Below, in pieces: positions 1 to 10,268 of a stretch of DNA of 10,268 bases. This DNA comes from a virus. Lineage: Duplodnaviria > Heunggongvirae > Uroviricota > Caudoviricetes. Location: the IMG/VR virus record IMGVR_UViG_2563366845_000009, positions 1-10,268 of that record; one strand, 5' to 3'. Position numbers and translations under genes: made by a program. Under the pieces are notes generated by a model. It was not told where the DNA came from. It was given only the letters and a program-made list of their open reading frames with translations, and did not search any database. The stretch's first letter is position 1. Each line of letters begins with the position of its first letter.

Positions 1-1242
1 ATGGCACGAAAAACCACCCCACTAACTATTACGGAGATCAAAAACGCACGACCAGGGGAAAAGGAATACACCCTGCAGGATGGCGGAGGATTATTTCTTC
101 TGGTGAAACCCTCCGGATCAAAAATCTGGCGTTTTACGTACTACCGCCCGGCAGATAAAAAACGGACTATCATCAGCCTCGGATCGCTGAATGATGTTTC
201 CCTGTCCGATGCCAGAGAACGACGGAATGAATACAGGTCACTCATAGCGAAGGGAGTTGACCCACAGGACCACGAACGCCGGAAACGTGAAGCAGAGAGT
301 CGGAAAAAGGGCAACACGTTCGAAAAAGTTGCCTCGGACTGGTACGAGATGAAAAAAGGCCAGAATCTGGCTTACAACACGATTAAGGATATCTGGCGAT
401 CCCTGGAAAAATACGTATTCCCGTACATCGGAAACACGCCAATAGATACCCTCACAGCTCGCCGCTTTGTTGAGATACTCACACCCATTAAAGCACGCGG
501 CAACCTGGAAACCCTGAAACGCGTTTTACAACGCATCAATGAAGTGATGGATTTTGCTGCCAACAGTGGGCTGATTGACATCAACACCGCCGCGAACGTC
601 CGCAAGGCATTCCCCTCACCCACCAAAAAGCACATGCCAACCATCCGACCGGAACAGCTACCGCAGCTAATGCACGATTTATCGGTCGCCAGCATAGAAC
701 GGCAAACCAGATTGCTGATTGAGTGGCAACTGCTGACCGTAGCACGCCCAGCCGAAGCAGCCGCCGCACGCTGGGAAGAAATAGATCTCGATGCCGAAAC
801 ATGGACGATTCCAGCCGGACGCATGAAGATGCGCCGTGACCACGTGATCCCCCTTTGCGGTCAGGCTATGGCTGTACTGGAAACCATGAAGCCAATCAGC
901 GCACACAGGGAACACGTTTTTCCCAGCCTTAAAAACCCGATGCTGCCAATGAGCAGCCAGACCGCTAACGCCGCATTGCGCCGGATGGGTTACGCTGGTG
1001 TGCTGGTGTCTCACGGATTACGCGCCATATTCAGTACAGCAGCGAACGAGGAAGGATTCGAGCCGGACGTAATCGAGGCCGCACTCGCACACGTGGACAC
1101 AAACGAGGTAAGGCGAGCATATAACCGAAGTAACTACCTGGAAAAGCGCGTGGTGCTTATGCGCTGGTGGGGGGAATTTGTAGAGGCCGCAGCTACCGGA
1201 GTGACCATAGCCAGTGGTAAAAGGGGTATCCGTGCCGTGTAA
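1..1242 (+). CDS. int: Site-specific tyrosine recombinase, P4-type integrase family (N-terminal arm-binding domain plus C-terminal catalytic domain)
   Basis: 413-aa ORF with stop at 1240-1242. N-terminus (KNARPGEKEYTLQDGGGLFLLVKPSGSKIWRFTY) is typical of the P4-integrase N-terminal domain; C-terminus has the HGLRA box and a conserved Tyr region (RRAYNRSNYLEKR). No homology search was run. Confidence 0.93.
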   Translation: MARKTTPLTITEIKNARPGEKEYTLQDGGGLFLLVKPSGSKIWRFTYYRPADKKRTIISLGSLNDVSLSDARERRNEYRSLIAKGVDPQDHERRKREAESRKKGNTFEKVASDWYEMKKGQNLAYNTIKDIWRSLEKYVFPYIGNTPIDTLTARRFVEILTPIKARGNLETLKRVLQRINEVMDFAANSGLIDINTAANVRKAFPSPTKKHMPTIRPEQLPQLMHDLSVASIERQTRLLIEWQLLTVARPAEAAAARWEEIDLDAETWTIPAGRMKMRRDHVIPLCGQAMAVLETMKPISAHREHVFPSLKNPMLPMSSQTANAALRRMGYAGVLVSHGLRAIFSTAANEEGFEPDVIEAALAHVDTNEVRRAYNRSNYLEKRVVLMRWWGEFVEAAATGVTIASGKRGIRAV

Positions 1243-1266
1243 CTGTACAAAAAACCAGTAAAAGCG

Positions 1267-1295
1267 ATGCAAACCATGCTAAACCATCGTATAAT
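1267..1295 (+). promoter_or_regulatory. Candidate sigma70 promoter: perfect -10 TATAAT (1290-1295) with weak -35 (ATGCAA, 1267-1272)
   Basis: Perfect TATAAT hexamer about 60 bp upstream of the AAGGAG ribosome-binding site and GTG of the next ORF; the -35 matches consensus at only 3 of 6 positions. Confidence 0.3.
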
Positions 1296-1358
1296 CGCCA
1301 CAACCCACCCAATACAGAGAGGAGTCACCCAAATCATGAAATTCAAGGAGCTATCCAG

Positions 1359-1601
1359 GTGTTTTTCAATGAAAAGGTATCCCCTGCTTGCGGCGAAGGG
1401 CTGCAACTGGCGTTAATGGCAAATCGTGAATTCTGGTCAACATACGATCCGGAAGACAAATCAACAGCCCCCACAAAACACGAGGTAGTCAGTTTTTTGC
1501 GCTCACGTGGCGCATCGAAAAACCTGGCTGAAAGCATCGACAAGGTGCTGAGACCCACCAGCCTTAAATGCGGTGGGCGGCCTAAGAAGTGGAAACGGTA
1601 A
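1359..1601 (+). CDS. Hypothetical small protein (80 aa, GTG start; alternative ATG at 1416)
   Basis: AAGGAG (1345-1350) lies 8 nt upstream of GTG 1359; stop TAA 1599-1601 is followed immediately by a terminator hairpin. No recognisable motif. Confidence 0.4.
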   Translation: MFFNEKVSPACGEGLQLALMANREFWSTYDPEDKSTAPTKHEVVSFLRSRGASKNLAESIDKVLRPTSLKCGGRPKKWKR

Positions 1602-1607
1602 TCACAA

Positions 1608-1636
1608 TAGCGGCCCCTTGCGGTCGCTATTTTTTT
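1608..1636 (+). terminator. Rho-independent terminator candidate
   Basis: Imperfect 8-bp stem (TAGCGGCC / GGTCGCTA, one G-T wobble) at 1608-1629 followed by a run of seven T (1630-1636), directly after the stop at 1601. Confidence 0.45.
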
Positions 1637-1678
1637 GCAGAAAGAAAAGCGTAATCAATGAGATAAAAAACAGTGAGT

Positions 1679-1694
1679 ACCGTTTTAAAACGGT
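1679..1694. promoter_or_regulatory. Perfect 16-bp palindrome ACCGTTTTAAAACGGT upstream of the AlpA-family gene (candidate operator; alternatively part of a hairpin/terminator with the T-run at 1703-1707)
   Basis: Reverse complement is identical; extended by outer arms AGTACC (1676-1681) / GGTACT (1696-1701); lies about 80 bp upstream of the GTG at 1772. Confidence 0.35.
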
Positions 1695-1771
1695 GGGTAC
1701 TGTTTTTCCCGCCCTGCCCTGTTTTACCGTATTTATCACCGGAATACGCCGGATTAACGAGGTAAAACATA

Positions 1772-1978
1772 GTGGAAACAATCAGAAAAATACTTACCCG
1801 TCAGGAAGTAAAAAATATTCTGCGCATCAAGGCAGACAGTTCGCTACAGGACATGATCAACGCCGGAAAATTCCCGAAAGGCTTCAAAATCGGTCTGCGT
1901 CGTGTTGGCTGGTATGAAGATGAAGTGCTGGCCTGGCTGAAAGAGCGCGAGGAAGAAGCGCGCGGAACGGCTGCGTAA
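1772..1978 (+). CDS. alpA: AlpA-family (MerR-like HTH) phage transcriptional regulator / excisionase-like protein
   Basis: 68-aa ORF, GTG start with GAGGT 7 nt upstream; sequence (ILRIKADSSLQDMINAGKFPKGFKIGLRRVGWYEDEVLAWLKER) matches the conserved AlpA/Vis-family pattern, including the VGW motif. Confidence 0.82.
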   Translation: METIRKILTRQEVKNILRIKADSSLQDMINAGKFPKGFKIGLRRVGWYEDEVLAWLKEREEEARGTAA

Positions 1979-2260
1979 TGGTGTGAGGCGTAACGCGATG
2001 AACATAACAAAAAGCGCCCCGTTGCCGGAGCGCCCTTGCGAACAATTAACCTGCTGCGAAAAAAATGGATCAGTGCAGGGGAATTATATCAACCGTGTGG
2101 CGAAGCGCCACAATTGCCGGATAACAGGCAAAGAAAAGGCCACCAGTCACGGCGGCCCTGCGACACAAATTTCGCGTTATCCCCAACGCATGAGCATCGC
2201 CAACAATGCCACATTTGCGGCTGGTGGGCAATGTGATCAGTGTGCTGGCTTGCTGGTGGG

Positions 2261-2440
2261 CTATTCCTGCTCTTTGGCTTTGCGCCGCTGGCGGCGTTTG
2301 ATCTCGCCTTGCATTGACGCAATGATGAATTGTGATGTGCTTTCGCCTGATTCTTTCACTGATTCCATGGCGTTTACTATTTCGTGTGGTACACGAGCCT
2401 TTAGAGCTTGTGATTTTGCGTTTTTTGTACCCGTTGCCAT
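2261..2440 (-). CDS. Small ribbon-helix-helix (Arc/MetJ/CopG-like) DNA-binding protein, putative repressor
   Basis: Internal ATG of the 120-aa minus ORF at 2438-2440, preceded by GAGGAA (6-nt spacer); 59 aa, MATGTKNAKSQALKARVPHEIVNAMESVKESGESTSQFIIASMQGEIKRRQRRKAKEQE. Pattern is beta-strand (LKARVP), helix A, G-x-S turn (SGEST), helix B, then a basic tail. Transcribed divergently from the promoter at 2502-2541. Confidence 0.55.
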   Translation of the reverse strand: MATGTKNAKSQALKARVPHEIVNAMESVKESGESTSQFIIASMQGEIKRRQRRKAKEQE

Positions 2441-2501
2441 TTCTATTCCTCTGGTGGATTGGTGGGGGACAGTATACACAGAAAAAGCACAAATAAAACT
2501 C

Positions 2502-2541
2502 TTGACGTGGGCCACACCTAAAACATATAGTGGGCCACACC
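2502..2541 (+). promoter_or_regulatory. Candidate sigma70 promoter (TTGACG-N18-TATAGT) overlapped by two direct repeats of GTGGGCCACACC (putative operator)
   Basis: -35 TTGACG 2502-2507; -10 TATAGT 2526-2531; exact 12-bp repeats at 2507-2518 and 2530-2541 (23 bp centre to centre), each containing a GTGG..CCAC half-palindrome. Sits between the divergent RHH gene and the downstream + strand gene block. Confidence 0.45.
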
Positions 2542-2639
2542 TTGAAATTATCAAGGCGCATAAATGCAAAGCCCCGCAAGTGTCGTTACCACTCGCAGGG
2601 CTTCTAACCACCAACGATAGCAACGGTATCGAGGTAGCT

Positions 2640-3179
2640 ATGTTAAATCATACCACACACCCGCAAGGGTGGGACTCGCACAACCTGAATAAAGCGGGTA
2701 TGAAAAACCTGTTGATCGCCACTGCCAGCCAGGGCTATGATTTACCCGCACCAGCAAAATCTGGTGCCGGGATTGGCGTCCTGGTATTTAACGAAGCGCA
2801 CAACACGCGCCCTGCGTGTTTTTTTGTGCCGGATAGTCACACCTTATCAATGGTGGGCTGTATGGGGGCGGAGCAATCCGCGCCGGGTTCTTCGTTAACC
2901 GGTTACGCCAACCCTGTACAGTCCACCGCCAGCGAAATTGGCGTTTCCTGCGGTGGGTTTATTAAACCTAACGAAGAGGCTGCCAACATGGCTACTACCC
3001 CTACCCTTATACATTCCCAAACTGCCTTTATCTGGCGCTTTATCATCTTTGGCGCGTCAGAATCTCAAATCATCCACGTGACCGCCTGGACAGAACGCGA
3101 AGCGCGTAACCATTGCCCGTCCGGTTGTGTCGCTGTATTCGCCGCCCGTATTCGTCAGGAGGTGCGCCATGTGCAATAA
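2640..3179 (+). CDS. Hypothetical protein (179 aa), first gene downstream of the putative operator-controlled promoter
   Basis: ATG 2640 preceded by GAGG (5-nt spacer), in frame with the long 1983-3179 ORF whose 5' portion overlaps the antisense RHH gene and the promoter; typical coding composition; no recognisable motif. Alternative start at ATG 2700. Confidence 0.45.
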   Translation: MLNHTTHPQGWDSHNLNKAGMKNLLIATASQGYDLPAPAKSGAGIGVLVFNEAHNTRPACFFVPDSHTLSMVGCMGAEQSAPGSSLTGYANPVQSTASEIGVSCGGFIKPNEEAANMATTPTLIHSQTAFIWRFIIFGASESQIIHVTAWTEREARNHCPSGCVAVFAARIRQEVRHVQ

Positions 3180-3429
3180 CACCCGTCCGGATGCAACCAC
3201 CGAAGCTATCAAAACGCTGATGGATGCGCTGATTGATATTTCTGTTATCGCAGACAAAGCGCATAAGCACGCCACCACTGAAACAGAATATGCCGGGGCT
3301 TTCGTTCCTCACTCACTGGCTGTAATGCAACTTAGTGCTGATATGGCGCTGAATGAGGCTAAAGCCATCCTGATTGCTGATTGTGAAAATGGGGGGGGGT
3401 TATGCGTGATGATCGTTTTAATTCCCTGA
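3169..3429 (+). CDS. Hypothetical small protein (86 aa)
   Basis: Strong AGGAGG (3157-3162) 6 nt upstream of ATG 3169; overlaps the stop of the upstream gene (coupled). Its 3' end contains a G9 homopolymer (3391-3399). Confidence 0.5.
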   Translation: MCNNTRPDATTEAIKTLMDALIDISVIADKAHKHATTETEYAGAFVPHSLAVMQLSADMALNEAKAILIADCENGGGLCVMIVLIP

Positions 3430-3623
3430 AACAGGAATTTTCCGGCGTTCCTGATGATGCGGCTGATGCGCTTTCGTCAATATCTGAAATTATGCGGGTG
3501 GCTTTTTTCTTTCTTTGCACTGATGAGCACAGAGATACAGGGCTAAATATTCTTGATATTGCCGCTAACTATGCTGATTTCGTGACAGAAGCTGTTTTAA
3601 GAAAAACGACGGACGGGGATTAA
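3402..3623 (+). CDS. Hypothetical small protein (73 aa)
   Basis: ATG 3402 lies immediately after the G9 tract (G-rich ribosome-binding site); overlaps the previous ORF by 28 nt in the -1 frame; stop TAA 3621-3623. Confidence 0.45.
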   Translation: MRDDRFNSLKQEFSGVPDDAADALSSISEIMRVAFFFLCTDEHRDTGLNILDIAANYADFVTEAVLRKTTDGD

Positions 3624-3624
3624 T

Positions 3625-3858
3625 ATGCGTGATATTTACCACGAAACAATAGACCGCGCATTTCTTGCACTTTCTCACAGTGAAAGCATGATGGAAATAT
3701 TGCGCATATGGCTTGAAACACTTGGCGACAATGAACGCGACAAACAAAAATCAAGAATTGCCACGGCATTAATAACGCTTCTTGAGCCTGTAATAATGGA
3801 GCTACAAGAAATAGACCTATTGCACGACAGATATAAAGAACAGCACACCGGAGAATAA
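3625..3858 (+). CDS. Hypothetical small protein (77 aa)
   Basis: ATG 3625 is 1 nt after the previous stop, GGGGA 5 nt upstream; acidic/helical composition. Confidence 0.5.
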   Translation: MRDIYHETIDRAFLALSHSESMMEILRIWLETLGDNERDKQKSRIATALITLLEPVIMELQEIDLLHDRYKEQHTGE

Positions 3859-3863
3859 AAATA

Positions 3864-4163
3864 ATGAAACTTAAATATTCTGGCTTTACTGCCAGCGGCC
3901 CCGCTCGGCCTGAAATCCGCCCCGGCGATATTTTCAAAGATAAATACGGCGGCACTGTAACGATTAAAAGCGTGGCGGGACGGTGTGTTACTTACCGCCG
4001 TGATGGGTACGGCTATGACTGCGTGATGCCTGTTTATCAGTTCCGGCGTGATTTTTCTCTGGTACAGAACGCAACACGCGGTAAGCCCACCAGCAGGGAA
4101 AAAGCACGGGAAAATATTAAGAAAATAAAAAGCATGCTCAGCGCATCCAGAGGTAAAAAATGA
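3864..4163 (+). CDS. Hypothetical small basic protein (99 aa)
   Basis: ATG 3864 with GGAG upstream; stop TGA 4161-4163 overlaps the helicase ATG (ATGA coupling). Basic C-terminal tail. Possibly related to small proteins found upstream of replication genes in enterobacterial islands, but not verifiable here. Confidence 0.5.
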   Translation: MKLKYSGFTASGPARPEIRPGDIFKDKYGGTVTIKSVAGRCVTYRRDGYGYDCVMPVYQFRRDFSLVQNATRGKPTSREKARENIKKIKSMLSASRGKK

Positions 4164-5566
4164 AACTGGCACCGAACGTAAAACTGTTACCGAAAGATAA
4201 ACACACTGAGGCGGTTATTTTTGCGGGTGATAATGCTCACTCCTTTGCAGAACATTACATGATTGCACAGGCCAAAAAAGCAGGCGATCCCATCCCTCCG
4301 GTTTACCTGGGCCGTTATCAGTTAAGCGAACTGGACAATTTACAGATTGTTGATGAAGGACGATACAGAGCAAAGGTCATACGCGCCGGAAACCTGGACG
4401 ATATGCAGATGCTGACCATTGCCACCAAACTGGCGATCGCAGGTGTCCAGGAAGCACGGTTACTTTCAGAGAATTTCGAACTGCTGGAGGACTGGAGCGA
4501 GCAACTACCGCGGCTTAAAGAAACCTGGGAACGCGGGGAAAGTCTGGTCATGAATGGTGGAAAGCGAAAAATCACACTTCCCATCTCATGGGGTTCTGAG
4601 GGATTCGACGCGCAGCAAAGCTACGTAATTAAGGGGCTTATTCCGGCTGAGTCATTATGCAGCACCTACGGGGCCAGCGGTTCTTATAAATCGTTCCTGG
4701 CTATTTCCTGGTCGTGCCATGTTGCCACAGGTATGGCATGGGGAGGCCGCAGGGTAAGTAAGGGCGCTGTTATCTATATCGCTGGCGAAGGCAGTATGGG
4801 CGTAAAACGCCGCGTTAAGGCGTGGGAGATAACCCATGACAAGGTGGTTACAGATTTGTGCATCGTTAACGCGCCTGTCTTCCCCGCATCGCCTGACTAT
4901 GTGGAGCAGGTTATCAGGACTGCCGGACTTGTTAAGAGCAGAACGGGCGAAAATGTGCGGCTGATTGTGATCGACACGCTGGCCCGTTGCTTTGGTGGAA
5001 ATGATGAAAATGATTCCCGCGATATGGGCGCATTTATCCAGGGGTGTGACGCGATAAAGCAGGCCACAGGGGCCACGGTGCTGGTGGTTCACCATTCCGG
5101 CAAGGATGAAACAAAGGGGGCGCGCGGTTCCAGCGCATTCCGTGCCGCGCTTGATGCAGAGTACCGAATCAGCCGGGAAAATTCAGAGGTTACAGCACTG
5201 GTGGCGGCGTGTACGAAGATGAAGGACGCAGAGGAGCCAAAAGAGAGTGCATACGATCTTAAAAGCGTGGAGGTGTTCACCGATACAGATGGCGAAGAGA
5301 TTGTGTCCATGGTGGTGATTGACGTTCCCCGCGCCCCTGCTGAACTGGAGCGCATAGAGGAGGCCGGGAACAAGACGGAAAATCACACGGCTTTATGGGG
5401 TTGTATCCGGTCGCGTATACAGCATGGTGATAAATGTACGATCCCGCTGCTACGTGATGACATGAAAAAGCTGGGATATGACACAAAACACCTTAAACGA
5501 TGGTTAGCCAAACTGGAAAAAGACGGCGTGATTTGCGTCGATGGGGATGATGTTCACCCACTGTAA
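4160..5566 (+). CDS. Replicative helicase, RepA / AAA_25 (RecA-like, DnaB-superfamily) ATPase
   Basis: 468 aa; Walker A-like GASGSYKS, Walker B-like hydrophobic stretch ending in Asp (RLIVIDTLARCF), and the VLVVHHSGKD motif typical of RepA-type helicases; GAGG ribosome-binding site 6 nt upstream; followed immediately by the iteron array. Confidence 0.82.
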   Translation: MKLAPNVKLLPKDKHTEAVIFAGDNAHSFAEHYMIAQAKKAGDPIPPVYLGRYQLSELDNLQIVDEGRYRAKVIRAGNLDDMQMLTIATKLAIAGVQEARLLSENFELLEDWSEQLPRLKETWERGESLVMNGGKRKITLPISWGSEGFDAQQSYVIKGLIPAESLCSTYGASGSYKSFLAISWSCHVATGMAWGGRRVSKGAVIYIAGEGSMGVKRRVKAWEITHDKVVTDLCIVNAPVFPASPDYVEQVIRTAGLVKSRTGENVRLIVIDTLARCFGGNDENDSRDMGAFIQGCDAIKQATGATVLVVHHSGKDETKGARGSSAFRAALDAEYRISRENSEVTALVAACTKMKDAEEPKESAYDLKSVEVFTDTDGEEIVSMVVIDVPRAPAELERIEEAGNKTENHTALWGCIRSRIQHGDKCTIPLLRDDMKKLGYDTKHLKRWLAKLEKDGVICVDGDDVHPL

Positions 5567-5766
5567 AAAGTGGGCGTTAAAAGTGGGAGTAGTGGGTAAT
5601 TTAACTGGAATTTAACAAAATCGCCCACTTTCCCACGTGTATACATCCCAAAAAGTGGGCACTAAAAAAATACTTATGAAACAGTACGATATAAAACCAC
5701 AAAATCCCAGGTGGGACGAAGTGGGAAACCATGAAAAGTGGGCAGAAAAAGTGGGCACAGGTGGGC
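5565..5766 (+). repeat. Iteron-type replication origin: nine direct copies of (A)AAGTGGGC in two clusters, two inverted copies, and an AT-rich spacer
   Basis: GTGGG cores on + at 5570, 5583, 5592, 5656, 5711, 5721, 5738, 5751, 5761; inverted CCCAC at 5624-5628 and 5632-5636; AT-rich 5598-5620 (AATTTAAC twice) and 5661-5705; immediately 3' of the helicase gene. Confidence 0.7.
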
Positions 5767-5768
5767 GC

Positions 5769-6020
5769 ATGACAAGAAAAACCAGAGATAAGACAGCACC
5801 AAAATATAAAGCGTTAGACATGACAGAGCACGCCTTAAAGGTGGCAATCAGAACTATAGACCGCCACGCCGGAGAAGGATACGCGAAAGCACATCCCGAA
5901 CTGATAAGCGCATTCATGACCACGGCGGCGGCAAACTTTGCCACGCTGACAGAACGGGAGATTGCCGAAGCGGAACTGGTGACAACCATCAACGTTAAAA
6001 CCGGAGAGCAGACAGCATGA
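5769..6020 (+). CDS. Hypothetical protein (83 aa), translationally coupled to ssb
   Basis: ATG 5769 with GGTGGG 5 nt upstream; the longer 5637 start would run through the iterons; stop TGA 6018-6020 overlaps the ssb ATG 6017. Confidence 0.45.
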   Translation: MTRKTRDKTAPKYKALDMTEHALKVAIRTIDRHAGEGYAKAHPELISAFMTTAAANFATLTEREIAEAELVTTINVKTGEQTA

Positions 6021-6439
6021 CAGCACAGATAGCGGCTTACGGGCGGCTGGTGGCTGACCCGCAGTTAAAGACCACCAGCAAAGGGACACAAATGGCGATG
6101 GCGAGTATGGCGGTTCCCCTGCCGTGCAGCCAGGCCGATGACGGAACGGCGACGATGTGGTTATCCGTCCTGGCGTTTGGCAGACAGGCCGACGCACTGG
6201 CAAAGCACCACAAAGGCGAACTCGTGAGCGTGGCGGGTAACATGCAGGTAAGCCAGTGGACAGGCCAGAACGGCGAAACGCGGCAGGGCTGGCAGGTTAT
6301 CGCAGACAGCGTAATCAGTGCGCGAACGGCGCGACCGGGCGGCAAAAAAGGCCAACAGGGGCAGGCCACTGATGCACTGAACAGGGCAAAACAACAGGCG
6401 GGAAATGATGATCCGTACGGGGATAACATACCGTTTTAA
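6017..6439 (+). CDS. ssb: Single-stranded DNA-binding protein (short SSB with acidic C-terminal tail)
   Basis: 140 aa; N-terminus (AYGRLVADPQLKTT, then QWTGQNGETRQ) fits the SSB OB-fold pattern; Gly/Gln-rich linker; C-terminal DDPYGDNIPF resembles the conserved SSB tail (E. coli ends ...DDDIPF). Confidence 0.85.
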   Translation: MTAQIAAYGRLVADPQLKTTSKGTQMAMASMAVPLPCSQADDGTATMWLSVLAFGRQADALAKHHKGELVSVAGNMQVSQWTGQNGETRQGWQVIADSVISARTARPGGKKGQQGQATDALNRAKQQAGNDDPYGDNIPF

Positions 6440-6456
6440 GCAACGAGTGACAGAAG

Positions 6457-6478
6457 CCGGGATTTTCCCGGTTTTTTT
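6457..6478 (+). terminator. Rho-independent terminator downstream of ssb
   Basis: Stem CCGGG(A)/(T)CCCGG (6457-6471) followed by seven T (6472-6478). Confidence 0.6.
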
Positions 6479-6527
6479 ACGGGTCCTCCCGGTGGAGTGG
6501 CCTTACCACGGGGCGGGAGCGGCGCGG
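6472..6527 (+). other. cos-like site, copy A (cosQ/cosN-like core with a divergent right half)
   Basis: 6472-6516 (TTTTTTTACGGGTCCTCCCGGTGGAGTGGCCTTACCACGGGGCGG) is identical to 9009-9053; the next 11 nt match copy B at 8 of 11. Contains dyad CCCGGTGG-N10-CCACGGGG and the ACG|GGGCGG junction resembling the lambda cosN nick site. Confidence 0.5.
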
Positions 6528-6740
6528 AAAAAGGCTGGTTTTTGCATTTTCATGGCGGCGGCAGCATGTGTGATAATTTATTGATAATTAAAAAATATTT
6601 CCGTTTTCACCTGTACAATATTTTTTTCGCCCTGTCATTAGACCAGTTTGTAATTAATTGAAATATATAAATAAATCCGTTTTTCACCTGCCAGGTGGAG
6701 TTGCCAGTGTCAAAACGTGTTCAGATGGCGGGATATTTAT

Positions 6741-6763
6741 GCCGGATTTTCTCCGGCTTTTTT
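6741..6763 (+). terminator. Second rho-independent terminator-like hairpin in the ssb-capsid intergenic region
   Basis: GCCGGA-TTTTC-TCCGGC (6741-6757) followed by TTTTTT (6758-6763). Confidence 0.45.
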
Positions 6764-6865
6764 GTGTCTGAATCTGACTAATCTGTTTTCATGATAGAAA
6801 TATATTTATCTACCACTTTTATCGATCAATAATGCGCGCAGTTTAGTCAGTAAGAGGAAGTTACT

Positions 6866-7075
6866 GTGAATTGTATTAATGACCTGAACACAGGCGAGGT
6901 AAGAGGTGGTTCCGTTCATCTGGATGCGCAGACCGTTATGCGCCTTAAGCAGTACAGGATCGACCACATAAATCATCATCCTGGCCAACCATTACCAGGT
7001 GTGGCGCAGATTGTCAGACACGCAGTTAACGCGTGGCTTGATAAGAATGGTTTTGCATCTGGGGGTGAGCAATGA
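6866..7075 (+). CDS. Hypothetical small protein (69 aa), translationally coupled to the protease-capsid gene
   Basis: GTG 6866 with GAGGA 7 nt upstream; stop TGA 7073-7075 overlaps ATG 7072; basic region (VHLDAQTVMRLKQYRIDHINHH) could bind nucleic acid. Confidence 0.5.
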   Translation: MNCINDLNTGEVRGGSVHLDAQTVMRLKQYRIDHINHHPGQPLPGVAQIVRHAVNAWLDKNGFASGGEQ

Positions 7076-8985
7076 ATCACTGGTACACCATTAAGGCGGC
7101 GGGTGTTCGCGGAGCGGCAGAAATATCCATCTATGAAGAAATTGGCGGCTTCGGTATCACCGCGAAGCAGTTTGCGGAAGACCTGAAAGCCCTGGGCGAT
7201 GTCTCACATATCGACCTGCGGATCCATTCGCCAGGTGGTGACGTGTTTGAAGGCATCGCCATCTATAACCTGTTACGGAATCATCCGGCAGAAATTACGG
7301 TTTATATCGATGGTGTTGCGGCTTCAATGGCTTCGGTTGTCGCAATGGCTGGCGATCGTGTTGTGATGCCGGAAAACGCCATGATGATGATACATAAGCC
7401 GTGGGGTATCTCTGGCGGAAATGCTGGTGATATGCGTGATTATGCTGATTTGCTGGATAAGGTGGAAACCGTGTTAATCCCTGCTTATGCCAGAAAAACG
7501 GGCAAATCAGCACAGGAAATTACCGCCATGCTGGAAGATGAAACCTGGATGGACGGGAAAGAATGCCTTAAGCAAGGTTTTGCTGATGAATTGTTGCCAT
7601 CCGTCAGAGCAATGGCGCGAATTGAATCGAAACGCACAGGAGATTTTTCACACATGCCGGAAACCATTAAAGGAATGATTACCCCGCCACAGGGAGCAGC
7701 CAATATTGCTGGTAATGAACAGAAGCGCATCAACGGAATAAGTGAAGTGTTTAGCCTGTTCGGCAGTCGTTACGACGGGATCAAAATGGCGTGCCTGGAA
7801 GATGCATCATGTACACCGGAGATGGCCCGTGAAAAGTTGTTGAACGAGATGGGGCGCGAGTCCACGCCATCAAATAAAAATACCCCGGCTCATATTTATG
7901 CCGGTAACGGGAACATAACAGGTGATGCAATTCGTCAGGGGCTTTATTCTCGTCTCGGGTATGAACGCCCAGAGCGGGGAAATCCTTACGCGATGATGAG
8001 CCTTTTTGAAATGGCCCAGGCATCACTAACGGATCGTGGTATCAGTGTTGGCGGTTTTTTAAATCGCTCGCAGGTCGTTAATGCAGCTTTCACACACAGC
8101 AGCAGCGATTTTTCTCATATTCTGGCTGGTGGTGCTGAAAAATCAGTACTGAAAGGCTGGCAGGACAGCGGCGAAACGTTTCAGAAATGGACGCGTACCG
8201 GATCGCTTTCAAACTTTCATGAAGCAAAGCGCGTTGGTCTGAATGGTTTTTCAAAGCTGGATAAAGTACCGGAAGGTGCGGAATATAAATACATCACCAC
8301 CAGAGATAAAGGTGTACCTATTGCGCTGGCCACGTACGGGAATATTTTTTCCGTTACCCGTCAGGCCATTATCAACGATGACCTGACCCAGTTAACTACA
8401 ATCCCCATGGCGATGGGGCGTGCGGCCGCCAGAACAGTAGGTAATCTGGTTTATCTTCTGTTAACCAGCAACGGCAAATTTACGGATGGTAAAGCGTTAT
8501 TCCATGCCGATCATAAAAATCTTATTGCGAAGGATATGGACATGGAGGGGCTTAACGAAGCCCGTAAGCTGATGCGACTACAGGAGGATGCCAACGGCGA
8601 CTCCCTGAATATTACCCCCGCTTTTGTTCTGGTCCCTGCTGCGCTGGAGTCTGCCGCACATCGCGCCATTCTGTCATCGTCATCACTCTTTCCGGTTGAT
8701 GGTGAGGGCACTATCAATCAGAACCCCGGCATCATTAACGTGGTGAAAGATATGGCTGAGGTTATTGTTGAGCCACGTCTTGATAAGAACAATAACAAGG
8801 AGTGGTATGTAGCCGCAGCGAAAGGGATGGACACGATAGAGGTCGCTTATCTTGATGGTATTGATACGCCATATCTTGAGGAGCAGGAGGGCTTTACTGT
8901 TGATGGTGTCGCCTGGAAGGTGCGCATAGATGCAGGTGTTGCGGCCCTCGATTATCGTGGACTACTGAAATCGAGTGGAGCATGA
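7072..8985 (+). CDS. Fused prohead protease (ClpP/S14-like serine protease) and HK97-fold major capsid protein
   Basis: 637 aa; N-terminal ~200 aa has the ClpP-like catalytic Ser context (GVAASMASVVAMAG) and His context (MMMIHKPWG); the C-terminal ~400 aa is consistent with a Mu gpT / HK97-type major head protein; an ORF of this length with no internal stops is strong coding evidence. Confidence 0.88.
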   Translation: MNHWYTIKAAGVRGAAEISIYEEIGGFGITAKQFAEDLKALGDVSHIDLRIHSPGGDVFEGIAIYNLLRNHPAEITVYIDGVAASMASVVAMAGDRVVMPENAMMMIHKPWGISGGNAGDMRDYADLLDKVETVLIPAYARKTGKSAQEITAMLEDETWMDGKECLKQGFADELLPSVRAMARIESKRTGDFSHMPETIKGMITPPQGAANIAGNEQKRINGISEVFSLFGSRYDGIKMACLEDASCTPEMAREKLLNEMGRESTPSNKNTPAHIYAGNGNITGDAIRQGLYSRLGYERPERGNPYAMMSLFEMAQASLTDRGISVGGFLNRSQVVNAAFTHSSSDFSHILAGGAEKSVLKGWQDSGETFQKWTRTGSLSNFHEAKRVGLNGFSKLDKVPEGAEYKYITTRDKGVPIALATYGNIFSVTRQAIINDDLTQLTTIPMAMGRAAARTVGNLVYLLLTSNGKFTDGKALFHADHKNLIAKDMDMEGLNEARKLMRLQEDANGDSLNITPAFVLVPAALESAAHRAILSSSSLFPVDGEGTINQNPGIINVVKDMAEVIVEPRLDKNNNKEWYVAAAKGMDTIEVAYLDGIDTPYLEEQEGFTVDGVAWKVRIDAGVAALDYRGLLKSSGA

Positions 8986-8992
8986 CAACAAG

Positions 8993-9015
8993 GGCGGCGA
9001 TAGCCGCCTTTTTTT
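8993..9015 (+). terminator. Rho-independent terminator downstream of the capsid gene
   Basis: GGCGGC-GATA-GCCGCC perfect 6-bp stem (8993-9008) followed by seven T (9009-9015); the T-run is also the first 7 nt of the cos repeat. Confidence 0.6.
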
Positions 9016-9090
9016 ACGGGTCCTCCCGGTGGAGTGGCCTTACCACGGGGCGGCAGACGCGCGGGTTTTCGCTATTTATGAGCCTTTTTC
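9009..9090 (+). other. Lambda-like cos site, copy B (cosQ/cosN plus proximal cosB), directly upstream of the small terminase gene
   Basis: Window CCACG|GGGCGGCAGACG|CGCGGGTTTTCGCTATTTATGA (9043-9082) compared with the lambda left end as recalled from memory (GGGCGGCGACCT CGCGGGTTTTCGCTATTTATGA): predicted 12-nt cohesive end GGGCGGCAGACG (9048-9059), followed by a 22-nt match to lambda. Upstream TACGGGTCCT matches the lambda right-end motif. Confidence 0.65.
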
Positions 9091-9192
9091 GGGTGCTGGT
9101 GGTGGTTTTGTTGTTCGCTCTATCTCTATGAATAAAAAGGGAAAGATAAAACAAATACACCAACCTGAAACATTACTTAAGTGGGGATATTG

Positions 9193-9735
9193 ATGAAATC
9201 GCACCTGATGAACAAAAAAAACATGGCGCAAAGCTGCCGTGTAAGTGCGACAGCGTTCGACAAGTGGGGAGTGACTCCCGTTGAACGTAAAGGCCGCGAG
9301 GCGTTTTATGATGTTGCCAGCGTAATAGACAATCGGGTTAGCAATGCAATTAACCAGATTACAGACGACAAAGGCGAGATTGATAATGATGAGCTTTTGC
9401 GAGTCAGGATCAGATTGCTGACAGCGCAGGCGGAGGCGCAGGAGCTTAAAAACGAGCGCGAACGCGGCGACGTGATTAGTACGGAATTTTGTATATATGC
9501 GCTTTCAAAACTGGCGAGTCAGATTTCATCTATCATGGACAGCCTGCCGCTTACCATGCAAAGGCGCTTCCCACAGATGACCCCCGCCATGCTGGATGGC
9601 CTGAAAAAAGAAGTTGTCAGAGCCTGTAACGCATGCACAAAACTTGATGAAAACATCCCGCGAATGCTGTCCGATTATCTGATGGAAACTACCGGAAATG
9701 TGTCTGATAAGTTTCAGCCGGATAAAGACAAGTAA
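9193..9735 (+). CDS. Terminase small subunit, lambda Nu1-like (winged-HTH cosB-binding)
   Basis: By recollection of lambda Nu1: LLTAQAEAQELKNERERGDVISTEFCIYALSKLASQISSIMDSLPLTMQRRFPQ aligns with RLTRAQADAQELKNARDSAEVVETAFCTFVLSRIAGEIASILDGLPLSVQRRFPE, and LDENIPRMLSDYL with LDELIPGLLSEYI. Start is ambiguous (GTG 9181, ATG 9193, ATG 9208); 9193 gives 180 aa. Confidence 0.85.
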   Translation: MKSHLMNKKNMAQSCRVSATAFDKWGVTPVERKGREAFYDVASVIDNRVSNAINQITDDKGEIDNDELLRVRIRLLTAQAEAQELKNERERGDVISTEFCIYALSKLASQISSIMDSLPLTMQRRFPQMTPAMLDGLKKEVVRACNACTKLDENIPRMLSDYLMETTGNVSDKFQPDKDK

Positions 9736-9753
9736 CGTAGTGCACAATGACCG

Positions 9754-9776
9754 AAGCCAGTTTACTGACTGGCTTT
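9754..9776 (+). terminator. Weak hairpin / possible terminator after the terminase gene
   Basis: AAGCCAGT-TTACTG-ACTGGCTT 8-bp stem (9754-9775) followed by only TTT. Confidence 0.3.
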
Positions 9777-9896
9777 CAGCGTTGCGCTGGTGGGAGTTAT
9801 GCGTCAGTGATGAACAAAAAATAATCGAAATCGACACCGAAAAATAAAACATCAAGTCATATCAATATATTGCATTGGTGGTGATGACGAATAAAA

Positions 9897-10268
9897 ATGC
9901 AAAAACTAGCCTTTTTCCGCGATGCTCCCGCCCCGTGGCAGGGCACCCCACCAGGAGGACCCGCCATCACTATGGAGGCCATGACCATGACCGAGACCGA
10001 AGCGCTCGGGATAATCCGCAGTATTACCGGAATCAGCCAGCAGGCTGACGAACAGGCCACGCAGCCGGATACAGTCACCGCTGAAAATTACGCGCGTGTG
10101 ATGGCTGAGGTGATGCGCCGTGACGGTATCGAGCTTAATGGCGTGGATATACGCAACATACGCACCAGAGTTCTGGAGATGTTGTCGTACCGTCGCCGCG
10201 TGCAGATGTACCAGGAGAAAGAAAAAATTACGTACCAGTGGAAGAAGCCGGAGCGGTTACGGCGATAA
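9897..10268 (+). CDS. Hypothetical protein (123 aa from ATG 9897; alternative 98-aa start at ATG 9972)
   Basis: Open frame ending at TAA 10266-10268; ATG 9897 has no Shine-Dalgarno; the in-frame ATG 9972 has AGGAGG (9953-9958) but a long 13-nt spacer. No recognisable motif. Confidence 0.4.
   Translation: MQKLAFFRDAPAPWQGTPPGGPAITMEAMTMTETEALGIIRSITGISQQADEQATQPDTVTAENYARVMAEVMRRDGIELNGVDIRNIRTRVLEMLSYRRRVQMYQEKEKITYQWKKPERLRR

Follow-up and report, generated by a model that had tools for sequence, protein, structure and literature searches.

Three lambda-type cos sites around the capsid and small-terminase genes of an Escherichia coli phage satellite

We analysed a 10,268-nt stretch of DNA, hereafter the window (IMG/VR record IMGVR_UViG_2563366845_000009, positions 1 to 10,268), which carries three cos-like sites around a capsid gene and a small-terminase gene. 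Judged by its sequence, the window is a Gram-negative phage-inducible chromosomal island (PICI) of the EcCICFT073 family, a helper-dependent phage satellite of E. coli. It is 100% identical to DNA of E. coli RM11911, where it adjoins tRNA-Pro between yejM and yejO. The window begins with the start codon of the integrase gene and ends with the stop codon of the island's last gene, and a 16-bp direct repeat (TTTTTAGCTACACGTT, att) flanks the island, giving a unit of 10,792 bp. The integrase gene int (1-1242) is followed by the regulator gene alpA (1772-1978), icd-like and ash genes, a DUF4222 gene, a RepA-family helicase gene (4160-5566) and the single-stranded DNA-binding protein gene ssb (6017-6439). 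The right part holds, all on the + strand, orf69 (6866-7075; phrog_4934, E = 2.7e-30), a 637-aa fusion of a ClpP-like prohead protease and major capsid protein (7072-8985), terS for a 180-aa small terminase subunit (TerS) of the Nu1/N15 gp1 family (9193-9735), and a last gene for 93 aa (9987-10268; phrog_1561) that is conserved across the PICI family. The gene order is that of EcCICFT073 in the CFT073 chromosome, and the last genes of the two islands are 74% identical, which places the window in this family. The terminal integrase, alpA, replication module and att site are likewise those of Gram-negative PICIs, and so is the size, which in such islands is about 10-15 kb. Its virion and packaging genes are limited to the fusion gene and terS; the open reading frames (ORFs) of the window include no gene for a portal, a large terminase, a tail or lysis. 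This gene content suggests that the island depends on a helper phage.

The + strand has exactly two copies of a 45-mer (TTTTTTTACGGGTCCTCCCGGTGGAGTGGCCTTACCACGGGGCGG), one at 6472-6516 and one at 9009-9053, as a sequence-only reading of this DNA had reported, and a match of this kind appeared in 0 of 200 dinucleotide-preserving shuffles. The similarity between the direct copies reaches 56 nt at 95%. That reading counted two sites. It overlooked one more copy, in inverted orientation, that lies near 9891-9963 in the space from terS to the last gene and resembles copy A including its right flank (54 nt at 89%). When the sites were aligned to the annotated lambda cos (DE3 record) and the annotated N15 sticky end, the cosQ motif GGGTCCT preceded ACG/GGGCGG (the slash marks the nick) in all three copies, with a spacing of 30 nt in A, 30 nt in B and 29 nt in C; the spacing is 30 nt in lambda and 29 nt in cdtI. 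Each copy also has a 12-nt cohesive-end segment that starts with GGGCGG and lies between the flanks ACG/ and /CGCGG. By these features all three copies are lambda-type cos sites with cosQ and cosN, so the earlier identification of both direct copies as cos-like was correct. The predicted first cohesive-end bases are 6511 (A, + strand), 9048 (B, + strand) and 9933 (C, - strand).

The two direct copies begin within terminators, which we read from the sequence. One follows ssb (6457-6478, + strand; hairpin CCGGG-ATTTT-CCCGG at 6457-6471, then T7), the other the capsid gene (8993-9015, + strand; hairpin GGCGGC-GATA-GCCGCC at 8993-9008, then T7), and in each case the T-tract of the rho-independent terminator supplies the seven T with which the direct copy begins. 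Among relatives the hairpin after ssb varies while the T-run and the cos core are kept. These T-tracts, together with matches of parts of the query to 2,727 of 5,426 complete E. coli genomes (the set used for all genome counts below), would suit a common intergenic or regulatory element, such as a terminator or promoter region, unrelated to packaging. These widespread matches, however, come from the cos of prophages; the lambda cos and the sticky end of N15 can be aligned with the core base for base, genome records of phages have their first base within it, and the repeat region has no Rfam family match. A generic intergenic or RNA element is thus contradicted by the data, and we give it almost no credence. 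A scan of 6350-10268 for sigma-70 promoters found sites no more numerous than in shuffled sequence.

The cos A site (6472-6714, + strand; cosQ 6481-6487, predicted top-strand nick 6510/6511) closely resembles the cos of a known phage group. After GGGCGG it leaves the sequence of copy B, as had been noted, and continues past the shared core with GGGCGGGAGCGGCGCGGAAAAAGG. Its cohesive-end equivalent GGGCGGGAGCGG (6511-6522, + strand) is followed by a phage-type cosB (6523-6694, + strand) with two TTTTCACCTG-containing repeats, and by what is left of a deleted DUF1441 terS, its first 7 codons (6695-6714, + strand), where cos A ends. A terminator-like hairpin and T-run (6741-6764, + strand) come right after this remnant. 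The genome records of phages cdtI and Tritos begin exactly at window position 6511. Over their bases 1-204 they are 90% identical to cos A, and HannyBb matches likewise; the match takes in everything before the DUF1441-type terS, plus the first seven codons of that gene, and then ends. The cos of a prophage in the island-carrying strain TK3896 is identical to cos A at 186 of 204 positions. The homology ends at phage base 204 also in a relative whose cos A is 76% diverged, which indicates a single old capture.

The divergence of cos A is low for its surroundings. Its non-coding right flank (192 bp) is 96.4-96.9% identical between islands (3.1-3.6% differ), whereas the 4-fold degenerate sites of the capsid genes in the same islands are 83% identical (17% differ). 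Similarly, cos A is 90-91% identical to the phages, in contrast to 57-58% for the neighbouring capsid protein. These values favour, short of proof, a cos A that is maintained as a usable helper-type cos.

The capsid fusion downstream of cos A matches Pfam Phage_capsid_4 and CLP_protease and NCBIfam NF045540 (E = 1.6e-273). Over its full length it is 58% identical to the fusion of phage cdtI and 57% to that of the TK3896 prophage; phages of the cdtI/Tritos type use such a protease/capsid fusion as their capsid protein. The small gene orf69 has a Shine-Dalgarno sequence and overlaps the capsid start codon by ATGA, which points to translational coupling. It accompanies the fusion gene in relatives and is part of the capsid cassette. 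In RefSeq, a 57-aa ORF is annotated on the opposite strand of the orf69 region instead (L001 12507-12680).

Islands with the protease/capsid fusion have cos A upstream and a second direct cos, cos2, downstream of it. This set of cos A, capsid fusion and cos2 was seen at no fewer than three att sites and in company with different integrases and primases (L002, L010, IMG/VR L057, L064 and L106, and others). The capsid gene was found in 195 of the 5,426 genomes, the whole segment from cos A through the capsid gene to the next cos core in 184, and the junction of the phage-type cosB with island-specific DNA in 158; the exact hybrid of this window is present in only 7. Two cos sites in one small element had been called unusual. 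That view does not stand: such pairs are published for EcCICFT073 and SaPIbov4, the latter with two putative sites (PMC6092414), and the counts of 158-184 genomes given here say the same. One IMG/VR locus, L043, apparently carries two capsid-fusion cassettes or two tandem islands and has an atypical cos (GGGCGGGTCGGCGCGGAAAAAAGCG).

The second direct copy, cos B (9009-9192, + strand; cosQ 9018-9024, predicted nick 9047/9048), is chimeric. Its left arm is of the island/cdtI type and identical to that of cos A. The cohesive-end equivalent GGGCGGCAGACG (9048-9059, + strand) differs from that of cos A at 3 of 12 positions, and the cosB types of the two sites differ as well, as had been expected. 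Next come 22 nt (CGCGGGTTTTCGCTATTTATGA; 9060-9081, + strand) identical to lambda bp 13-34, and from bp 35 on the site is unlike lambda. The cosB of lambda lies at about bp 48-65, with R3, the critical TerS site, at bp 50-65 (PMC9026076, Murialdo and Feiss 2022). The sequence-only reading, which described this site as a lambda-like cosN and cosB upstream of a Nu1-like gene, was therefore right about cosN and the gene, but the 22 nt are the right flank of cosN and the actual cosB is not lambda-like. No lambda R3, R2 or R1 site was found in cos B. Its satellite-only cosB (9082-9192, + strand), which carries GGTGGTGGT at bp 51-59, had no match beyond about bp 46 in 50,697 phage records. The right arm of cos B is shared, from bp 13, with the other PICIs L013, L031 and L033, and its part from bp 35 also with L012; in the sibling L031 this right arm follows a left arm that is lambda-like. 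An origin of GGGCGGCAGACG by heteroduplex repair at the joining of cdtI-type and lambda-type sequences was rejected, since L031 has this 12-mer behind a lambda-like left arm.

The cos B site is 145 bp upstream of the Nu1-family gene (9193-9735). The protein matches Pfam Phage_Nu1 and, over its full length, phrog_57 (E = 9e-52), and full-length alignment gave 47% identity to N15 gp1 and 36% to lambda Nu1. Rpp proteins, which occupy this place in EcCICFT073, have 139-154 aa with a winged helix-turn-helix and a dimerisation domain and are without the C-terminus that binds the large terminase subunit (TerL). The island protein is not built in this way. Its alignment with lambda Nu1 and N15 gp1 takes in the C-terminal segment, which in the lambda small subunit binds the large subunit (PMC9026076), and BLASTP gave no alignment with RppA (CFT073 c1503, 144 aa). 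The full-length alignment and the missing RppA similarity identify it as a complete TerS in place of the Rpp of EcCICFT073, and a role of the Nu1-like gene as Rpp was rejected on the same grounds. The AlpA-like helix-turn-helix gene of L012 was also considered as Rpp and rejected. The island TerS has no sequence match in the PDB.

The third site, cos C (9804-9963, - strand; cosQ 9956-9962), is inverted. It has the cohesive-end equivalent GGGCGGGAGCAT (9922-9933, - strand) and a cdtI-type nick flank (CGCGGAAAAAGGCTAGTTTTTGCATTT). About 90 bp of its cosB are 82-83% identical, over bp 44-130, to the cosB of S-type phages, our name for a distinct group of DUF1441-TerS prophages, and this homology runs out some 130 bp away from the nick. 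Conserved in L012, L019, L021 and L031-L033, the site is the positional counterpart of the inverted second cos of EcCICFT073. An inverted cos pair around terS, as formed by B and C, is also present in L012, L021, L031-L033 and 93 E. coli genomes. No inversion of the terS segment between cos B and cos C was seen among the matches listed at 80% coverage or more, all of which were single-piece and co-linear; in total, 93 genomes reach this coverage.

A triplet-repeat motif, GGTGGTGGT or CACCACC(ACC), was observed at the R3-equivalent distance in cos B (9098-9106, bp 51-59) and in cos C (9877-9883, bp 51-57). It is found in EcCICFT073 cos1 too (L015 cos(+) bp 55-63). Its strand in cos B is opposite to that in cos C and EcCICFT073 cos1. 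The motif could be a recognition element shared by TerS and Rpp, or a coincidence.

Comparison with two relatives locates the borders of the capsid cassette. L031 (IMGVR_UViG_2562617113_000011) has the same integrase and a B-terS-C cassette that is 99.75% identical including GGGCGGCAGACG. It carries lambda-type gpE/gpD capsid genes and a lambda-like cos B left arm and is without cos A. Its identity to the window is lost at about 6460 and comes back at 9045, at the cos B nick (boundary 9044/9045). These two break points are the borders of the capsid cassette, and they indicate that modules are shuffled at cos. In L053 (IMGVR_UViG_2654587792_000035, 5700-6450), the left arm of cos A is fused at cosN to the right arm of cos2 and the orf69-capsid cassette is precisely absent, so that it represents an exact natural cos-to-cos deletion. 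Together, the L031 swap points and the L053 deletion show that the copies of the direct repeat sit at either end of a cassette that can be exchanged; the capsid cassette lies between two direct cos copies because it is bounded by the cos A left arm and the cos B nick. In our best reading, cos cores serve as recombination junctions for cassette exchange, and since the cosQ-cosN core is shared, the cos sites would also be the places of this exchange. An earlier suggestion that the repeat is a recombination scar from acquisition of the capsid cassette was therefore right on its origin.

The direct pair might also have a role of its own. The cos A site could mainly be a terminating site, which would provide cosQ/cosN for the end of runs started at cos B, in line with the cosQ-type termination signal suggested before, or a decoy that titrates helper terminase and so interferes with the helper. 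Alternatively, the capsid cassette could be gained and lost as a unit excised by terminase, through cos-to-cos cutting and joining of cohesive ends. Both sites have a cosQ that is spaced as in lambda and points the same way, and their left arms are homogenised within islands, 45 of 45 positions being identical here (2-5 differences in L002, in L010 and in L032, an island near-identical to the window). In relatives with a DUF1441 TerS, the two cohesive ends are identical or differ by 1 nt, so a cos2-to-A product could circularise, and L053 is exactly such a product. However, homologous recombination between direct repeats of about 80 bp gives the same deletion, and L053 does not discriminate between the two routes. 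In the window itself, the cohesive end of A is distinguished from that of B by 3 of 12 positions. We regard a separate role of the direct pair as improbable.

The phage cosB types fall into several groups. The cdtI-type nick region is common to at least four phage cosB/TerS groups (P, Q, R and S). The DUF1441 TerS proteins of related islands are 67-75% identical to the TerS of Q, R and S phages, and they share only the C-terminal half with P-type TerS. Some islands carry an R-type cosB almost verbatim. A purely island-private origin of the DUF1441 TerS and of the cosB of cos2 and cos C was considered and then revised, since Q, R and S prophages in IMG/VR show TerS at 67-75% identity and cosB at 72-83% similarity. 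P-type prophages, defined by a cdtI-like cos plus terS at 80% coverage or more, are present in 737 of the genomes (13.6%). At least two of the seven genomes with the exact island, TK3896 and W12-1, also carry one, a co-residence that is not significant against the 13.6% background. The P-type cos-terS regions of TK3896 and W12-1 are 99% identical to that of cdtI (TK3896 prophage: L152, 2896426-2909149), and the two strains are candidate natural helper-satellite pairs.

The three sites share the parts that belong to the large subunit (cosQ and cosN) and differ in the part that belongs to the small subunit (cosB). We lean, with moderate confidence, towards a set that serves several helpers, in which we infer cutting at each site, the assignment of helpers and a benefit to the island. 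Upon helper induction, the island would be excised and replicated to concatemers. The near-verbatim phage sequence of cos A, cosB included, suggests that the unmodified terminase of a cdtI-type helper should start at 6511 and would then move rightward. With a lambda/N15-type helper, the island TerS would bind the private cosB of cos B and recruit the helper large subunit, a logic like that of redirection by SaPI TerS or Rpp, although with a complete TerS. The cos C site would let packaging start at one more, inverted place; it looks like the cos of another, third phage specificity group in shortened form. Packaging being polar, runs that set out from cos A or from cos B should not be terminated by the inverted cos C. 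A head of 47-48.5 kb would be about 90% full with four units (43.2 kb). A wider version of this reading, which we hold only tentatively, is that the PICI family keeps a set of cos sites with interchangeable cosQ-cosN cores, each cosB being matched to a different terminase group (cdtI 'P', 'S' and the island's own TerS). Dual packaging specificity, one of the options raised before, fits the sequence best, with A as cdtI-type cos plus cosB and B as a lambda-type nick flank plus the island's own TerS.

Several observations weigh against a set for several helpers. Nicking at the three positions is a prediction. The conservation of the cos A flank could reflect recent recombination instead of selection. 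The cos A junction is missing from about 19% of the islands that carry this capsid gene, such as L011, in whose lineage a HEPN gene takes the place of cos A; these absences indicate that cos A is dispensable for persistence. The cos C site is without the distal part of the phage cosB, and its cognate DUF1441 TerS is not encoded in the island. The cos A and cos B sites have the same orientation and cohesive ends with 3 of 12 mismatched positions, and packaging that starts at B and ends at A would yield an 8.26-kb molecule without the capsid gene and with non-matching ends. An extra cos can carry a cost, as deletion of cos2 raised the transfer of EcCICFT073 (PMC6092414). Finally, four islands of the protease/capsid type (L135, L142, L104 and L120) are integrated in S-type prophages just downstream of the large terminase gene, and the surrounding prophage matches neither the cosB of cos A nor that of cos2. 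An S-type prophage around an island with P-type cos A and its own cos2 argues against a simple correspondence of one helper and one cos.

In a rival reading, cos B alone works, and the other two sites, cos A and cos C, are inert remains carried along when cassettes are exchanged. The cos A site would then be what is left of a phage left arm that was captured and later lost terS to the portal gene, and cos C an older cos-terS stump, both kept by linkage and by the little time elapsed. The cos A homology ends 20 nt into terS, at the same phage bp 204 in the 76%-diverged relative, the order from cos to capsid mirrors the phage map, and the cassette boundaries coincide with cos cores. The absence of cos A in about 19% of islands with the capsid gene, the truncation of cos C at about bp 130 and the restriction of the exact window hybrid to 7 genomes point the same way. 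On the other hand, cos A has an intact cosQ, spacing and cosN and a whole cosB. Its identity to living phages is 90-91%, against only 57-58% for the capsid protein, and its non-coding flank is about five times less diverged between islands than the capsid 4-fold sites. Moreover, any replicon with a phage cos was packaged in published plasmid tests (PMC6092414), so an intact cos is unlikely to stay silent when a matching helper is present. We consider inert leftovers unlikely, though a serious possibility, and retain the set of sites for several helpers as the preferred reading.

Other features of the island lie away from the cos sites. Three iteron-like direct repeats (AAAAAGTGGGCRYTAAAA) at 5565-5750, spaced by 85 and 83 bp and directly 3' of the RepA helicase gene, are a candidate replication origin. 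Candidate operators are a 21+21 nt near-palindrome at 1666-1707, about 65 bp upstream of alpA, and a tandem GTGGGCCACACCT pair at 2507-2551 in the divergent YlcI/icd region. A 398-aa ORF at 1983-3179 covers the truncated ash pseudogene and the icd-like gene of RefSeq, which may reflect decay or mis-annotation here.

Virulence and defence genes are carried by PICIs from one enterobacterium to another, and packaging signals determine which phages can mobilise these islands. This island and its relatives suggest that the large-terminase part of each cos is kept constant while the small-terminase part either is a copy from a different helper group or is private in relation to it. The island also shows a complete island-encoded TerS of the cos type in the place of Rpp. 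If the suggested pattern holds, the helper range of an island could be read from its cos and cosB types in genome data.

PICIs with several cos sites have already been published; the present island adds a third, phage-identical cos and a complete TerS in the place of Rpp. In EcCICFT073 there are two such sites, named cos1 and cos2 (PMC6092414, Fillol-Salom et al. 2018 ISME J). Both, when cloned, support transfer by lambda and phi80 (PMC6092414; PMC6739421, 2019 Mol Cell), and cos1 is required for transfer and recognised through RppA (PMC6092414). In the CFT073 sequence they form an inverted pair that flanks rppA. A lambda-like cosQ/cosN with a non-phage cosB before a packaging-redirection gene, and an inverted cos just downstream, correspond to B and C here. 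However, EcCICFT073 encodes RppA, which needs the helper TerS, whereas this island encodes a complete TerS of 180 aa. EcCICFT073 has capsid genes of the gpE/gpD type with no cos upstream, whereas here cos A precedes a protease/capsid-fusion cassette, and its two cosN are both of the lambda type, whereas those of cos A and cos C are of the cdtI type.

Among phages, lambda shares with the island the cosQ GGGTCCT 30 nt before the nick, ACG/GGGCGG, the 22-nt flank of cos B and a Nu1-family gene downstream. It differs in its cohesive end, GGGCGGCGACCT instead of GGGCGGCAGACG and GGGCGGGAGCGG, in its R3, R2 and R1 sites, which are absent here, and in the right flank, which in cos A and cos C begins with CGCGGAAAAAGG. 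The phages cdtI, Tritos and HannyBb share cos A at 90% over phage bases 1-204, including both TTTTCACCTG repeats, and the capsid fusion at 58%, but their terS, terL and portal genes, which come after cos, are absent from the island.

Among satellites, capsid-forming PICIs (cf-PICIs) have a complete set of capsid, protease, portal, connectors, TerS and TerL. The island resembles them in encoding an HK97-type capsid protein, a protease and a small terminase. No portal, TerL or connector ORF was found in the window or L001, which indicates that the island cannot build capsids alone and is not a cf-PICI. The pathogenicity islands of Staphylococcus aureus (SaPIs) have unrelated sequences and Gram-positive hosts, but they offer parallels to both packaging routes proposed here. 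SaPIbov5 has a helper-type cos for the helper terminase, as cos A would be, and a capsid-protein homologue, Ccm. Other SaPIs encode a small terminase with a private recognition site, as in cos B and the island TerS, although SaPI TerS works in headful (pac) packaging and not at a cos site. SaPIs are described as using one of these two strategies per element, whereas this island carries both.

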